Shown here piece after piece: positions 42,601 to 48,600 of a DNA stretch of 64,000 bases. The notes under the pieces were generated by a model, which saw nothing but the letters and a program-made list of their open reading frames with translations, had not been told where the DNA came from and did not search any database. The number at the start of each line of letters is the position of its first letter. Within the stretch, counting starts at the first letter, position 1. The DNA lies in NCBI GenBank assembly GCA_951406725.2, contig OX597838.1, positions 19,282,001 through 19,346,000 on the forward strand. Reading direction: 5' to 3'. The position numbers and the translations under genes are program-made. The DNA is from Octopus vulgaris. Lineage: Eukaryota.

Positions 42601-45600
42601 TTCTATCACCAATTGTTATTGTTATTATTATTATTATTTGGAATATATTGGAACTTATACATTTTCCAATCTCTTTATATCTCTTTATTCCTTTCAACAC
42701 TGGAGTGGCTGTGTGGTAAATAGCTTGCTCACCAACCACATGATTCCAGGTTCAGTCCCACTGCATGGCACCTTGGGCAAGTGTCTTCTACTATAGCCTC
42801 AGGTCGACCAAAGCCTTGTGAGTGGATTTGGTAGATGGAGACTGAAAGAAGCTGAGTGTATATATGTATATATATATATATATATATATATATGTAGGTC
42901 CCGGGTTGATTCGGGGTTAACCACAGTAAGTAAGGTACTCAATACATAGCAGAGTAAAATTAATTTATTATATAGAAGGAGCTTCTACAGGACTAGTACT
43001 GTTTCATTCAAGAGAAATCTTCAGGAAGCTATTTAACAAGAATTGTATTAGCATTTATACATTTAGGCAGGTTTAAAGGAGTGGTGGTGGGGGACTTTTT
43101 TGGGGGTAGGCATAGCGCAAAATATCATACTTGGGGGAGTGGTCAAGGAGTCAGTGGTAAGTTAGATGAAAGAATAGATAAATAAAAAAATAAATAAAAA
43201 AAAAAATAAATAAATAAATAAATAAATAAAATAATAAAAAATAAAAAAAAAAATATATATAAAAAATATATATATATATATATATATATATAAAAAAAGG
43301 GGGGATAGAGTTATAGGTAAATAAGGAGATTCTCACTTATACCTATACACATATGTATACGTATCTACACACATATATATACATATACATATATATATAT
43401 ATATATATATATACACATATACATATATACACATATACATACATATCTACATACACACATACATACACCCGCCCACATATACAAATTTATACACATGCAC
43501 ATGCATATACCTGTCTACACATACACACACGCATATATGCATACACTCACTCCCATGCATGCACGCATACACACATGTATATATATACCCACGACCACAC
43601 ATACATATATACACAGAAAAATATATATTCATACGCACATACACTCATGCACACACAACACACCTAGTTCCCTATATACACATATTTACACCTATATATA
43701 CATACACCCACATACACATATGTACATATATATATATATATATATATATATATATATATATACACGCGTACATATATATACATGTGTGCACATACATACA
43801 TGTACACATATACATACACACACACATACACATGTGTACCTATACATACCTACACATACACACATACATACATATATATATATATATATATATATATATA
43901 CAATCCAATACAGGCCCATTCCCTAATTTTAATTTTATTATCTTCATTTATTACTTTTGTTATCTTTGATCGCTAGAGCTAAGGATCCTGGCTATGGCAG
44001 CATGTCCATTTGTCTGTCTACTAGAAGGCAAGTACTCATTCCCGCACGCACACTCATTAGCACGTACATTCACCCATTCGTACACTCATACACATACACG
44101 TACGCACGCGTTATATTCATACATACAAACATCTACATACGTTCACGTATATACACATACGTACTCGTACCTACAGATTCGTGTCTACACTTTAGGAGGC
44201 TAGTCTATACATATACACCAATAAATATACATATATATATATATATACACATATACATACACACACACACATATATACTCCTACATACAGATACATACCT
44301 ATATATATATATATATACATATATATATATATATATATATATATATATATATATATACACATACATACACACACACACATATATATACACACACATACAT
44401 ACACATATATATACATACACAAACATATATACACACACATATATATATATATATACACACATACACACACATACATACATATACACACAAACACATACAT
44501 ACGTATACATACATACATACATCCATACATCCATACTTACATGCATTTATACGCATACACACACCCCCATCTATATATATATATATATATATATATATAC
44601 ACACTCACACATACATATACAAATATACGAACACACATACATACATACACGTATACACATACACGCACATACACATATACATGCGTACCCATACACGTGC
44701 ACACACGCACGTGCATCCATATATATACACACACACACATATATACACGTGTGCAAGCATACATACATACTCATACACGCACACATACTTACATATACAT
44801 ATATGCACACACTTACACACATATATACATACACATATACATGCATACATACATATATGCATACATACACATACACGCACATACACATATACATGCGTAC
44901 CCATACACGTGCACACACGCACGTGCATCCATATATATACACACACACACATATACACGTGTGCAAGCATACATACATACTCATACACGCACACATACTT
45001 ACATATACATATATGCACACACTTACACACATATATACATACACATATACATGCATACATACATATATGCATACATACACCCACGCACACTCATATATAT
45101 ATATATATATATATATATATATATACATATATATACATATATACATATATACACATACATATACATACACACATACATATACATACACATACACATACAT
45201 ACATATATATATATATACACATATGTACACATATACACATACATATATACACATATACATACATATACATACACACACACATACATATATACATATACAC
45301 TGATACACATACCCATACATATATATATATATATACACACACACACATATAACACATGCATATACTTATATCTCTACATACTCACATATAAACATATATA
45401 TATACACACATATATATATACATGTACATACACATACATATATATATATATATATATATATATATATATATATATATGTGTATGTACATGTATATATATA
45501 TGTGTGTATATATATATATGTTTATATGTGAGTATGTAGAGATATAAGTATATGCATGTGTATATGTGTGTGTGTGTATATATATATATATATATGTATG

Positions 45601-48600
45601 GGTATGTGTATCAGTGTATATGTATATATGTATGTCTGTGTGTATGTATATGTATGTATATGTGTATATATGTATGTGTATATGTGTACATATATATATA
45701 TGTATGTATGTGTATGTGTATGTATATGTATGTGTGTATGTATATGTATGTGTATATATGTATATATATGTATATATATATATATATATATATATATATA
45801 TATATATATATATATATATGAGTGCGCGTGTGTGTATGTATGCATATATGTATGTATATGTATATGTGTATGTATATATGTGTGTAAGTGTGTGCATATA
45901 TGTATATGTAAGTATGTGTGCGTGTATGTGTATGTATGTATGCTTGCACACGTGTATATATGTGTGTGTGTGTATATATATGGATGCGCGTGCGTGTGTG
46001 CACGTGTATGGGTACGCATGTATATGTGTATGTGCGTGTATGTGTATGTATGCATATATGTATGTATGCATGTATATGTGTATGTATATATGTGTGTAAG
46101 TGTGTGCATATATGTATATGTAAGTATGTGTGCGTGTATGAGTATGTATGTATGCTTGCACACGTGTATATATGTGTGTGTGTGTATATATATGGATGCA
46201 CGTGCGGGTGTGCACGTGTATAGGTACGCATGTATATGTGTATGTGCGTGTATGTGTATACGTGTATGTATGTATGTGTGTGCGTATATTTGTATATGTA
46301 TGTGTGAGTGTGTATATATATATATATATATATATATATATAGATGGGGGTGTGTGTATGCGTATAAATGCATGTAAGTATGGATGTATGTATGTATGTA
46401 TGTATGTATACATGTGTTTGTGTGTATATGTATGTATGTGTGTGTATGTGTGTATATATATATATATATGTGTGTATATATGTTTGTGTATGTATATATA
46501 TGTGTATGTACGTGTGTGTATATATATGTGTGTGTGTGTATGTATGTATATATATATATATATATATATATATATATATATAGGTATGTATCTGTATGTA
46601 TCTGTATGTATATATGTGTGTGTGTGTATGTATATGTGTATATATATATATATATATGTATATTTATTGGTGTATATGTATAGACTAGCCTCCTAAAGTG
46701 TAGACACGAATCTGTAGGTACGAGTACGTATGTGTATATACGTGAACGTATGTAGATGTTTGTATGTATGAATATAACGCGTGCGTACGTGTATGTGTAT
46801 GAGTGTACGAATGGGTGAATGTACGTGCTAATGAGGTGCGTGCGGGAATGAGTACTTGCCTTCTAGTAGACAGACAAATGGACATGCTGCCATAGCCAGG
46901 ATCCTTAGCTCTAGCGATCAAAGATAACAAAAGTAATAAATGAAGATAATAAAATTAAAATTAGGGAATGGGCCTGTATTGGATTGTATATATATATATA
47001 TATATATATATATATATGTATGTATGTGTGTATGTGTAGGTATGTATAGGTACACATGTGTATGTGTGTGTATGTATATGTGTACATGTATGTATGTGCA
47101 CACATGTATATATATGTACGCGTGTATATGTATATATATATATATATATATATATATATATATGTACATATGTGTATGTGGGTGTATGTATATATAGGTG
47201 TAAATATGTGTATATAGGGAACTAGGTGTGTTGTGTGTGCATGAGTGTATGTGCGTATGAATATATATTTTTCTGTGTATATATGTATGTGTGGTCGTGT
47301 GTATATATATACATGTGTGTATGCGTGCATGCATGGGAGTGAGTGTATGCATATATGCGTGTGTGTATGTGTAGACAGGTATATGCATGTGCATGTGTAT
47401 AAATTTGTATATGTGGGCGGGTGTATGTATGTGTGTATGTAGATATGTATGTATATGTGTATATATGTATATGTGTATATATATATATATATATATATAT
47501 ATGTATATGAGTATATATATGTGTGTAGATACGTATACATATGTGTATAGGTATAAGTGAGAATCTCCTTATTTACCTATAACTCTATCCCCCCTTTTTT
47601 TATATATATATATATTTTTTTATATATATATTTTTTATATATATTTTTTATTTTTTTATTTTATTTTATTTTATTTTTTTATTTTATTATTTTATTTTTT
47701 TATTTATCTATTCTTTCATCTAACTTACCACTGACTCCTTGACCACTCCCCCAAGTATGATATTTTGCGCTATGCCTACCCCCAAAAAAGTCCCCCACCA
47801 CCACTCCTTTAAACCTGCCTAAATGTATAAATGCTAATACAATTCTTGTTAAATAGCTTCCTGAAGATTTCTCTTGAATGAAACAGTACTAGTCCTGTAG
47901 AAGCTCCTTCTATATAATAAATTAAAATATATATATATATATATATATATATATATATATATATATATATATGTGTGTGTGTGTGTGTGTGTGTGTGTGT
48001 GTGTGTGTGTGTGTGTGTATATGTTTGTGTGTCTGTGTTTGTGTGTCATGACTTTTGGAAACATTTTTTCACACTCAGAGTTGCTGAAGTATGGAACAAA
48101 CTGTCGGCATCATTTGTTAGTTGTCGGAGCACTGCATCCTTCAAAACTTCCATGCTTCCTGAGATTCGCCAACACTACACCTGATTTTTTCCCCTCCATA
48201 CACACACAAGCATGTATCTAACTCATATACTGTTAACTTCCTGGGCATTTGTACATTACTGCATATGCTTTATATGCACTTCTGACAAGTTGTGGTGCAC
48301 CTGAGCACTGTATACAATAATTTCATTATTATTATTATTATCATTATTATTATTATTATTATTATTATTATTATTATTATTATTATTATTATTATTAAAT
48401 CATAGGACACATGCATTCCTGTATTGTTCTGTTTCATAACAAATGTAAACTAACTCAGCTGCCCGCAGGCTGCTAAGTACAGAGTTATGCTTATGTAAAC
48501 AGTAAACTTTATAGAAATATATTTTATTCAAAGCTACTTTGTGTGACATTAACTATTGAATTCTAGCTTGACTAAGTGATTCATACACCACTAATATATT

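Follow-up and report, generated by a model that had tools for sequence, protein, structure and literature searches.

The palindrome at 42960-47925 of the window (the whole 64,000-nucleotide stretch of DNA analysed) very probably consists of two 5'-truncated copies, arranged head to head, of the 3' UTR of a Penelope-type element (PLE). The pair is inserted in the (TA)n tract of a SINE within an intron of SANBR, and likely arose in one retrotransposition event. Its arms belong to an autonomous 5.2-kb PLE that encodes a reverse transcriptase (RT) and a putative endonuclease (EN).

The palindrome and its insertion site

The region is tiled by inverted-repeat blocks of 294-534 nt each, with complementarity of 94-97%, and the GC skew changes sign at about 45500. 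Palindrome centres were located by direct symmetry count. The best centre is at 45456/45457, within an (AT)n run at about 45438-45478, and arms of about 2.47 kb are mirrored around it. Global alignment of the right arm with the reverse complement of the left gave 2518 columns, comprising 2384 matches, 65 mismatches and 69 gap columns that fall in 17 events. Gaps excluded, the arms are 97.35% identical. These results bear out an earlier sequence-only reading, which had described arms of about 2.5 kb mirrored around (TA)n near 45457 and differing by scattered substitutions and indels. A>G (22) and G>A (22) differences are balanced in the arm alignment; they are repeat-register shifts in DNA, not editing.

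That reading had also set the extent at 42960-47925. This stands for the mirrored part but not for the left end of the insert, since a 66-nt tail at 42894-42959 belongs to it. The insert thus extends over 42894-47925, starting 66 nt left of 42960, and its two ends are not equivalent. The right arm terminates in ...AATAAATTAA, without tail. No further copies of the element were found in the window outside the palindrome.

In intact SINEs, the internal (TA)n(TG)n is followed by sequence that matches the stretch lying past the right-hand (TA)n(TG)n and reaching about 48045. Both flanks are halves of one SINE, split at its (TA)n tract as had been proposed. The exons matched by tblastn on either side agree with the earlier placement in a SANBR intron on the + strand, with the right-hand hammerhead-like motif in sense. 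The weak match at 42357-42398 may mark the exon closest to the insert, about 500 nt upstream of it. Coordinates are collected in Table 1.

Table 1. Features of the insert and its surroundings in the window
Feature	Position	Strand	Basis or remark
SANBR exon upstream of insert, residues 286-332 of octopus SANBR protein P0122	40951..41091	+	tblastn
Possible nearest SANBR exon, residues 329-342	42357..42398		weak collinear tblastn match, E=0.014
5' part of tRNA-like target SINE	42703..42860	+	matches at least 12 other window SINE copies, 79-95%
Left-side (TA)n of SINE, target microsatellite	42861..42893	.	intact SINEs have (TA)n(TG)n there
66-nt PLE tail, left arm only	42894..42959	-	same 66 nt at element ends elsewhere
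Left arm, 5'-truncated PLE 3' UTR / pseudo-LTR	42960..45456	-	antisense to SANBR
Hammerhead-like motif, left arm	42980..43030	-	identical to right-arm motif
Central (AT)n, counterpart of internal (TA)n in element's UTR	45438..45478	.	symmetry count
Right arm, 5'-truncated PLE 3' UTR / pseudo-LTR	45457..47925	+	sense to SANBR
Hammerhead-like motif, right arm, 51 nt	47855..47905	+	manual reading, MFE fold, variant pattern
(TA)n(TG)n and continuation of split SINE	47926..48045	+	matches intact copies
Next SANBR exon downstream, residues 351-390	52195..52323	+	tblastn

The repeat family and its coding copies

The arm sequence recurs at many loci, at 91-96% over 1.4-1.8 kb, with every copy ending at the position equivalent to 47925. 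Other copies are shortened to 244, 333 or 1409 bp. The same end point at many loci indicates recurrence beyond chance. The arms are members of a repeat family in which the 3' end is constant and the 5' truncation varies. The terminal 236 bp of the right arm occurs at 100% identity in at least 40 other places, all of them from the 40 candidates scored among 1226 found at first look. The family is young and abundant, with hundreds of near-identical young copies.

Coding copies revealed the organization of the element. At one locus (L034), RT and EN reading frames lie between two 3.9-kb arms. Direct tandem units 5193 bp apart were found on C1 and again on C8. Each unit is ordered as tail, leader, 506-aa frame, 225-aa frame and a UTR of about 2.9 kb, with RT and EN occupying different frames in this tandem-copy subfamily. 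The UTR end runs through the tail into the next ORF, and the same continuation is seen at L018. Pseudo-LTR partial tandems, a PLE feature, are therefore present in the octopus family (C1, C8 and L018).

The 506-aa frame was modelled with a pLDDT of 88.9. The best Foldseek match of the model is a telomerase RT (3du5_A, E=1.6e-09), and its top matches include yeast, ciliate and human TERT (7lma, 9swn and 7qxb among the TERT chains). Retron, DRT, group II and LINE-1 RTs rank behind TERT. A YRDDG motif was read in this frame. By its predicted fold, the 506-aa frame is a telomerase-like reverse transcriptase. For the 225-aa frame, support for a GIY-YIG endonuclease is indirect. It shares 39% identity (E=7e-46) with the C-terminal residues 495-713 of P0097, a homologue 718 aa long. 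This protein is the sole one of 30 homologues that matches Pfam GIY-YIG (PF01541, 1e-05). Of 30 ESM Atlas matches, 15 belong to a set named for GIY-YIG, and PF01541 is found in 23% of its members. The EN frame contains the motif ...SYIGMT... as well as a Cys-rich stretch. Pfam assigned no family to the element's own frames, including the 183-aa and 225-aa frames, and gave neither RVT_1 nor GIY-YIG for them; RVT_1 was reached by only one of the 30 homologues. No PDB match was obtained by sequence search or with profiles built from homologues.

The 66-nt tail was found on 29 of the 31 ends at 30 other loci, and is missing beyond 47925. Of the 15 pairs, 14 have the tail at one end only, as do a nested mini-pair at L047 and the window palindrome. 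At least four TA repeats follow 29 of the 31 ends; of the other two, one is a tandem continuation and one lies at an AT-rich site. The family nearly always inserts into (TA)n, which is a preference for microsatellite or AT-rich targets. No target-site duplication is readable because the target is a microsatellite.

Inverted partners are common in the family. At 15 of 20 other loci examined, on many contigs, there is an inverted copy upstream that has an outer end of its own. Two of the remaining five have an inverted inner fragment, and three have no partner. Single, non-inverted, 5'-truncated copies occur as well (L035, L042 and L044). Arm lengths vary from pair to pair, between 0.1 and 4 kb. 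Six pairs, including the window palindrome, are symmetric without spacer and one further pair has a 17-nt spacer, so that 7 of 17 are symmetric within 17 nt. The other ten are not, and mostly have clearly unequal arms. The symmetry centres lie at differing positions of the element, some in the UTR, others in EN or RT coding sequence or in the hammerhead region. The mini-pair at L047 is nested inside the element's own internal (TA)n. The same locus also has a pair tailed at both ends with a 1.1-kb gap, which may be two events.

The inverted partners at other loci, the RT-EN unit, the tail at one end and the (TA)n targets support the earlier proposal of a Penelope-type inverted insertion. Its description as an unusually long non-coding element does not hold, as the arms are the 5'-truncated 3' UTR, or pseudo-LTR, of the RT- and EN-encoding 5.2-kb element.

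Origin of the inverted pair

A single insertion could have produced the palindrome as follows. The element's endonuclease would have cut the (TA)n of the SINE. Reverse transcription would have begun at one of two start sites close to the RNA's 3' end, with or without the tail, and cDNA synthesis would have halted at the element's internal (TA)n. The nascent strand likely folded back, as (TA)n can pair with itself, and then served as primer for its own copying. Such priming would give arms of equal length without spacer. We favor a single event because the flanks are halves of one SINE, and because, at 13 of 15 tested positions where the arms differ by a point change, one arm has a private base and the other the family majority base. 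These changes are split about evenly between the arms (6 and 7).

The individual elements of this scheme have precedents. Passages of PMC8557442 describe PLEs that have a 5'-truncated inverted copy next to them, carry a tail at one end and insert into (TA)n. The relevant part of PMC11167929 reports that a lizard PLE protein cuts both target strands and extends them in vitro, and that the tail lies between two RT start sites. Self-priming of PLEs was deduced from palindromes at inverted junctions, according to sections of PMC3846280. The symmetric centre in self-complementary (TA)n fits this model. However, simple self-priming copies the first arm to its tip, and does not by itself explain the tail-less second arm. 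Nor does self-priming at the very tip explain the 10 of 17 pairs that are asymmetric.

These two features bear on a possible, though somewhat doubtful, alternative with the same element and event. The arms would be separate cDNAs, one per cut strand, which both stopped in the internal (TA)n and whose self-complementary ends annealed and were joined. The cleavage and extension of both strands by the lizard protein from two start sites, as given in excerpts of PMC11167929, is in line with this, and two start sites on two strands would directly explain one tailed and one tail-less end. The asymmetric pairs, most of them with clearly unequal arms, are also expected. So is the arm difference at 47300, a variant present in about half of the other copies; being common in the family, it would also fit two different templates. 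On the other hand, independent stops should seldom coincide, yet 7 of 17 pairs are symmetric within 17 nt, with widely spread centres.

We consider an assembly artefact very unlikely, whether from a chimeric long read of the fold-back kind or from two repeat copies wrongly joined. The flanks are not mirrored, being two halves of one SINE. The same layout with the tail at one end recurs at 15 of 20 other loci on many contigs, and the arms differ in private substitutions and repeat lengths. These observations weigh against the artefact despite an interior that is microsatellite-like and highly repeated, and despite the trouble that PLE tandem and inverted structures are known to cause in assemblies (noted in a portion of PMC8557442). 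Among the contigs of four runs, with three organism labels, no independent contig bridges a junction. When they were compared with 42300-43345, none crossed the (TA)n at 42860-42894. As the contigs stop at this (TA)n, neither the junction nor the empty site is visible in them, and the assembly of the SANBR-intron copy is unconfirmed. The unique flank 42300-42728 is present under all three organism labels, and SINE and PLE parts are massively repeated under all three. In all four runs, loose (TA)n ends adjoin a tail-less element end near 42961-42963.

That the family inserted twice, independently and in opposite orientations, into one (TA)n tract is conceivable for an element that targets (TA)n, its own internal tract included, as the mini-pair at L047 shows; the pair tailed at both ends there may be an example. 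For the window palindrome this history is highly improbable. The arms abut, with no intervening target sequence, and are truncated at one and the same position of the element. Their divergence from the family is about equal (6 and 7 private changes), and the partner layout, at 15 of 20 loci, is far too frequent for chance.

It is just as improbable that the host has co-opted the hairpin as a SANBR element acting through regulatory dsRNA or as a ribozyme. Its position about 500 nt past the candidate exon at 42357-42398 and the very long stem that it would form, with a sense hammerhead-like motif, would suit such a role. However, it is one among hundreds of near-identical young copies, and the SANBR-intron copy shows no conservation beyond that of the family. 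The insert is probably without selected function.

Loop-less foldback elements have long arms joined without a loop, and the arms here are also long, consist mostly of degenerate TA/CA repeat sequence and have no loop between them. Nevertheless, an identity as a DNA transposon of the foldback type, or as some other element whose long terminal inverted repeats are built from simple repeats, has next to no probability and is already contradicted. The inverted repeats are not the element's own ends, the unit of which the arm forms the 3' part occurs in direct tandem and has an RT-EN reading frame, the family includes single 5'-truncated copies without inversion, and arm lengths differ between pairs from 0.1 to 4 kb. 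In LINE-1 twin priming, the source of 5' inversions, an inverted segment arises in one target-primed insertion, with segments from different parts of the RNA. The octopus pairs are alike in having an inversion within a single insertion. They differ in that both arms copy the same 3' region, and twin priming of the L1 style was rejected on this ground.

Hammerhead-like motif, dsRNA potential and known systems

As had been stated for the outer ends of the palindrome, the motifs there are identical: 47853-47905 (+) and 42980-43032 (-) are the same in every letter over 53 nt. Their identification as hammerheads is upheld in part. The right-arm motif contains helix I AGCUUC/GAAGCU (6 bp), the core CUGAAGA...GAA and helix III ACAG/CUGU (4 bp), and both helices abut the core and appear in the MFE fold. 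The core was read as CUGAAGA ... GAA ... CUGU-A, matching C3U4G5A6N7G8A9 ... G12A13A14 ... U16.1-H17, with the predicted cut after A47899. Among 95 motif instances there are 11 distinct versions, four of which differ at the edges only and were set aside as palindrome junctions. The core varies only at N7 (A/U), save for one A14G copy, so variation falls at free positions. Because the stems are invariant across versions, covariation gives no support either way.

Other features speak against the identification. Helix II (UUUC/GAAU) is weak, with U.U at 10.1/11.1 and 3 bp, and the conserved G10.1-C11.1 pair is absent. The MFE fold favors a rival hairpin, AAGA/UCUU, which occupies part of the core, and the motif is no more stable than shuffled sequences (z = -0.32). 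Rfam searches of 42900-43160 and 47720-47930 gave no hammerhead family at E<=10, and a search of 40000-51000 listed 150 of its 164 matches, with no hammerhead in that list. The latter search gave microRNA-like matches below threshold, on TA/TG repeats alone. In tandem copies the ORF start codon lies about 160-210 nt downstream of the motif. The sense motif at the 3' base of the stem may or may not cleave.

The insert places a long near-perfect inverted repeat inside a SANBR intron on the transcribed strand. Its intramolecular pairing potential comprises 22 perfect runs of at least 30 bp, totalling 2053 bp, with the longest at 235 bp. SANBR pre-mRNA would likely fold the insert into a stem of about 2.4 kb, a predicted ADAR substrate, and roles of the insert in dsRNA, ADAR and siRNA pathways are plausible. 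In a survey of 19 species, long dsRNA-forming loci were exceptionally frequent in octopus, and lizard Penelope was massively edited (PMC5625713). The palindrome is similar to the edited inverted repeats described there, namely Alu pairs, frog Harbinger and lizard Penelope, in being an intronic near-perfect inverted repeat capable of long dsRNA. Octopus repeats are unannotated in that survey. It would be an unlikely generalization that fold-back of PLE cDNA writes kb-long near-perfect hairpins hundreds to thousands of times, many of them intronic, and that such palindromes, not SINE pairs, supply much of the octopus long-dsRNA/ADAR load. As three quarters of the sampled copies are inverted pairs, they are a countable candidate source of octopus long dsRNA (PMC5625713).

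PLE insertions of this layout have already been published, and nothing about the locus is new in kind. Octopus vulgaris already has annotated PLEs (PMC13282606); the words palindrome and hammerhead do not occur in that paper. A 2026 preprint on animal retrozymes (10.64898/2026.07.22.740005) makes no mention of cephalopods or molluscs. With kb arms, one tail per pair and many spacer-less centres, the octopus family is a natural data set on PLE integration, and its pairs bear on the unsolved question of self-priming versus two-strand priming. Such inserts resemble microsatellite with unique islands, and repeat and gene annotation pipelines can overlook them.

Compared to type I hammerheads (Cervera and de la Pena 2014, PMC4209133), the octopus motif is alike in topology, the 6-bp helix I, the CUGANGA / GAA core and the pseudo-LTR location, and the A/U variation at N7 among subfamilies is within the type I core consensus. 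In one old copy helix III is cut to 2 bp with a 4-nt loop, resembling minimal type I forms. Unlike the type I forms in that paper, the octopus motif has a 3-bp helix II with U.U in place of the highly conserved G10.1-C11.1 and no bulged base after A9, and its 4-bp helix III has an 8-nt loop that in most subfamilies is not palindromic.

The element as a whole resembles the EN+ PLEs with a Cys-rich linker before GIY-YIG (Neptune/Nematis type, with Penelope/Poseidon as the general model), in which a telomerase-like RT is followed by a C-terminal GIY-YIG-type endonuclease. By comparison of features, the octopus element shares with them the hammerhead-like motif just upstream of the ORF and, as covered in parts of PMC8557442 and PMC3846280, pseudo-LTR partial tandems, frequent 5' truncation, the adjacent inverted truncated copy, the one-end tail and (TA)n targets. 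The octopus element differs in its RT and EN, which are split over two frames in the tandem-copy subfamily. Its pseudo-LTR / 3' UTR measures about 2.9-3.5 kb and is mostly degenerate TA/CA microsatellite, unlike the rotifer pLTRs of 181-218 bp cited in passages of PMC3846280, and its tail is 66 nt, against 30-40 bp in the PLEs treated in sections of PMC8557442.

Also close is the in vitro system PAc, the Poseidon of Anolis carolinensis, for which the relevant part of PMC11167929 gives two alternative ends set apart by the tail and an AT-rich target, as in octopus, and a hammerhead a short way upstream of those ends, where the octopus element has its hammerhead-like motif. The predicted octopus cut lies 26 and 92 nt before the two ends, and the PAc RT start sites lie about 85-92 nt past the cut, by arithmetic from the figures of that source. 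PAc shows no strand difference in start site there, whereas the octopus pairs nearly always have one end of each kind.

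The palindrome and its SANBR context

The assembled sequence does contain the palindrome. In a repeat search of the window, 42960-47925 is tiled by inverted blocks of 294-534 nt with 94-97% complementarity, and GC skew is negative over 43250-45499 and positive over 45500-47499. Global alignment of the right arm (45457-47925) with the reverse complement of the left arm (42960-45457) gave 2384 matched and 65 mismatched positions, and 69 gap columns from 17 events. The arms are 97.35% identical outside gaps. Forty-four of the mismatches are evenly divided A/G differences (22 + 22) clustered in TG/TA runs. 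They are repeat-register shifts and show no directional change. The symmetry centre, 45456/45457, lies within an (AT)n run, and the two outward-facing 53-nt stretches holding a hammerhead-like motif are identical. These results bear out a sequence-only reading of a ~5-kb palindrome with mirrored arms, scattered arm substitutions and indels, a (TA)n centre near 45457 and identical motifs facing outward. Read contigs at the site are short and end at the microsatellite.

Both flanks are halves of one tRNA-like SINE split at its internal (TA)n(TG)n. Intact copies in the window revealed this, and a SINE split at (TA)n had been proposed. The left arm carries a further 66 nt that the right arm lacks, so the insert spans 42894-47925. 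The right end of the span first proposed, 42960-47925, stands; its left boundary does not, since the 66 nt also belong to the insert. The split SINE is cut off at ~48045 by another repeat. At least 12 copies of the SINE occur within the 64 kb, each with an internal (TA)n(TG)n of variable length. They provide many targets for a (TA)n-seeking element.

A tblastn search with the octopus SANBR protein (690 aa) found collinear exons between 27310 and 62186 of the + strand. They lie on either side of the insert, which is therefore intronic with its right arm in sense, as the sequence-only reading had it for the intron and the right-hand motif. P0122, the protein model of octopus SANBR, has repeated ...AKIGNLLSW... 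units in its C-terminal part, which maps several times onto 62004-62186 (+). This suggests that a tandem repeat was taken as coding sequence in the gene model.

Transcription through the intron would allow the arms to pair in RNA over ~2.4 kb, with 22 perfect runs of at least 30 bp. Octopus is reported to rank first both in hyper-editing and in loci with the capacity for long dsRNA, and the lizard Penelope to be massively edited (PMC5625713). Together with general knowledge of ADAR, this suggests that the arm RNA may be edited or diced.

Features of the window
Feature	Coordinates	Strand	Remarks
BTB_SANBR exon	34773-34949	+	97% identity to octopus SANBR records
SANBR residues 286-332	40951-41091	+	tblastn
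SANBR residues 329-342	42357-42398	+	weak tblastn match
66-nt tail	42894-42959		on left arm
Left arm	42960-45456	-	
Right arm	45457-47925	+	
Repeat cutting off the SINE	48046-48200		80% identity to second copy
Second copy of that repeat	57947-58100	-	
SANBR residues 351-390	52195-52323	+	tblastn
tRNA-like SINE copies	71-219, 6832-6964, 15575-15721, 18257-18399, 20014-20151, 25990-26140, 36159-36307, 48724-48878		and others

The arm family and its coding copies

The last 236 bp of the right arm recur with 100% identity at no fewer than 40 further places, 40 of 1226 first-look candidates having been scored. At 30 loci, alignments to the arm span 1.4-1.8 kb with 91-96% identity in many copies, all of them ending at 47925, and other copies are shortened to 244, 333 or 1409 bp. 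Such a constant 3' end, combined with 5' truncation of varying extent, is characteristic of target-primed reverse transcription.

Coding copies and layout were examined in a 10-kb stretch at each of the first 20 places. Longer copies hold reading frames between or beside the arms. At one of these loci, L034, a 218-aa frame contains YRDDG and a 183-aa frame contains a Cys-rich stretch and ...SYIGMT.... Contig C1 has two copies in direct tandem, spaced 5193 bp apart, from which the whole unit was read. It consists of the 66-nt tail, a ~30-nt leader, a 506-aa frame, a 225-aa frame and ~2.9 kb of microsatellite-like UTR ending ...AATAAATTAA. The 506-aa and 225-aa frames are in different phases, with the shift located at a C homopolymer. 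A real frameshift shared by the copies, programmed frameshifting, or a systematic assembly error in the homopolymer could each account for it. The two frames (RT and EN) overlap by 40 nt in different phases at locus L063 (3986-6138, -) and in other copies, and the same 506-aa open frame occurs in at least 11 copies. A sister subfamily has open frames of 680-722 aa, with 95-98% protein identity over residues 9-211.

Neither frame matched a Pfam family or gave a match in PDB sequence searches. Of 8000 candidates scored against the 506-aa frame, 1462 are relatives at E<=1e-5, and most of the listed ones are ~700 aa long. Pfam identified RVT_1 in one and GIY-YIG in one of 30 such relatives. The 225-aa frame is 39% identical to the C-terminus of the GIY-YIG-bearing relative (E=7e-46), and 15 of 30 hits among its ESM Atlas look-alikes are in a set named GIY-YIG. 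For the 506-aa frame, some look-alike clusters have RVT_1 in 16-20% of members. Its AlphaFold model (pLDDT 88.9, pTM 0.84) best matches telomerase catalytic subunits in a structure search (3du5_A, E=1.6e-09; Tetrahymena, yeast and human TERT), followed by retron, DRT, group II intron and LINE-1 RTs.

Endonuclease-positive Penelope-like elements (PLEs) carry a telomerase-like RT and then a GIY-YIG-type nuclease in a tandem unit. Judged by the frames and the modeled fold, the arms are very probably part of such an element. This upholds the proposed Penelope-type inverted insertion. The proposed long non-coding element is not upheld. The arms are only the outer 2.47 kb of the UTR of a unit with both frames, so both window copies are 5'-truncated. 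The Cys-rich linker and (TA)n targets point to the Neptune/Nematis type, as outlined in passages of PMC8557442.

Ends, inverted layout and origin of the insert

Thirty-one element ends were compared at the 30 loci. Twenty-nine read ...AATAAATTAA, the same 66 nt and then (TA)n, and the other two run from ...AATAAATTAA directly into (TA)n. A (TA)n target is present at 29 of the 31. In tandem copies the 66 nt continue into the ORF leader and are thus element sequence, which we assign as the PLE "tail". Passages of PMC8557442 describe PLE extensions as often at one end only, and for a lizard element, part of PMC11167929 locates the tail between two sites at which reverse transcription starts. The unique flank 42300-42728 occurs in contigs from runs under three organism labels (A, B, C), with 9-11 letters differing in 300-430 nt. 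PLE ends with and without the tail occur under all three labels, and the family is therefore common to close relatives.

The inverted layout is the rule of the family. A landmark map of the 20 ten-kb loci revealed, at 15, an inverted copy lying upstream and bearing hammerhead and end landmarks of its own; at two (L038 and L046), an inverted inner fragment without outer end; and at three (L035, L042 and L044), no inverted partner within 9.7 kb. At L038 and L046 the fragment (UTR plus EN region) adjoins the + copy and the partner's outer 3' end is missing, a layout outside the prediction of a simple head-to-head scheme. The partner's outer end is without tail in 14 of the 15 pairs. The exception is L047, which also contains a single-tailed mini-pair nested in another copy's (TA)n. 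This mini-palindrome of ~170 bp (~7360-7533 in mapped orientation of G000:C7:109391859-109401858) lies within the longer copy's internal (TA)n; the element's own microsatellite-like UTR is therefore among its targets.

The arms are 0.1 to ~4 kb long, with 94.8-98.6% identity between arms in other pairs. A symmetry count on 17 inverted pairs gave spacer-less centres for the window, L031, L036, L037, L039 and the L047 mini-pair (69-78 of 80 positions) and a 17-nt spacer for L041. Symmetric centres are located in the UTR, EN frame, RT frame and hammerhead region. The remaining pairs are asymmetric, most with clearly unequal arm lengths.

An origin of both arms in one event is supported, because they abut directly, both flanks come from one SINE, and the arm differences are mostly private. 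The privacy test used the 15 of 65 point differences that fall outside clusters of repeat slippage. At 13 of the 15, one arm agrees with the family majority and the other arm has a base that is rare or unique there (six on the right arm, seven on the left). Two are polymorphic in the family.

The palindrome centre is a self-complementary (TA)n, an internal tract of the element's UTR. We propose that the endonuclease would cut the SINE's (TA)n, cDNA synthesis would start close to the RNA's 3' end and end at the internal (TA)n, and the nascent strand would fold back and prime its own second arm. Self-priming was earlier proposed for PLEs on the same kind of evidence, according to a portion of PMC3846280. 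Alternatively, priming on the opposite target strand may have produced the second arm as a separate cDNA, which would most directly explain why a pair has a single tail. For the lizard element, both target strands are cut and extended in vitro, as part of PMC11167929 reports. Independent stops would seldom coincide, yet 7 of the 17 pairs are symmetric. For symmetric pairs we therefore lean towards fold-back self-priming, and consider a second cDNA the less probable of the two. Either model alone leaves some features unexplained.

The hammerhead-like motif and comparison with known elements

The motif can be read as type I: AGCUUC / CUGAAGA / UUUC-UCUU-GAAU / GAA / ACAG-UACUAGUC-CUGU / A, followed by GAAGCU. 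A canonical core is flanked directly by helix I (6 bp) and helix III (4 bp), both of which appear in the MFE fold. Cleavage is predicted after A47899, leaving 26 nt to the end that lacks the tail and 92 nt to the one that has it. Subfamilies 77-99% identical in the region vary freely upstream of helix I. Inside the motif they differ at N7 (A/U), at three loop-2 and two loop-3 positions, and at A14, which is G in just one copy. Of these seven variable sites, six fall among the 51-nt motif's 13 unconstrained positions. In one old copy, an 8-nt deletion in loop 3 reduces helix III to 2 bp.

The hammerheads claimed from sequence are partly supported, by the core, helices I and III and variation at free positions. 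Helix II, fold energy and Rfam do not support them. Helix II has 3 bp, and a competing hairpin is slightly preferred over it in the MFE fold. Unlike PLE hammerheads, in which the G10.1-C11.1 pair is highly conserved (PMC4209133), it has U.U at this place. The fold energy is no better than that of shuffles (z = -0.32), and scans of both palindrome ends gave no Rfam hammerhead match, nor is there one among the matches listed for 40000-51000. The stems never vary, so there is no covariation, and the 20 nt downstream are as conserved as the motif. We file it as hammerhead-like, a putative ribozyme at the expected PLE position.

The palindrome is ordinary in kind; the observation was correct and its earlier reading largely so. 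What remains of value is the family-wide pattern, for its bearing on PLE integration mode, and the family's possible role as a dsRNA source. PLEs are already annotated in Octopus vulgaris, and the annotation passages of PMC13282606 make no mention of palindromes or hammerheads. Every structural feature of the insert agrees with published PLE architecture. The octopus family differs from published PLEs in degree, in its 3-kb microsatellite-like pseudo-LTR, its 66-nt tail and its high share of kilobase palindromes.
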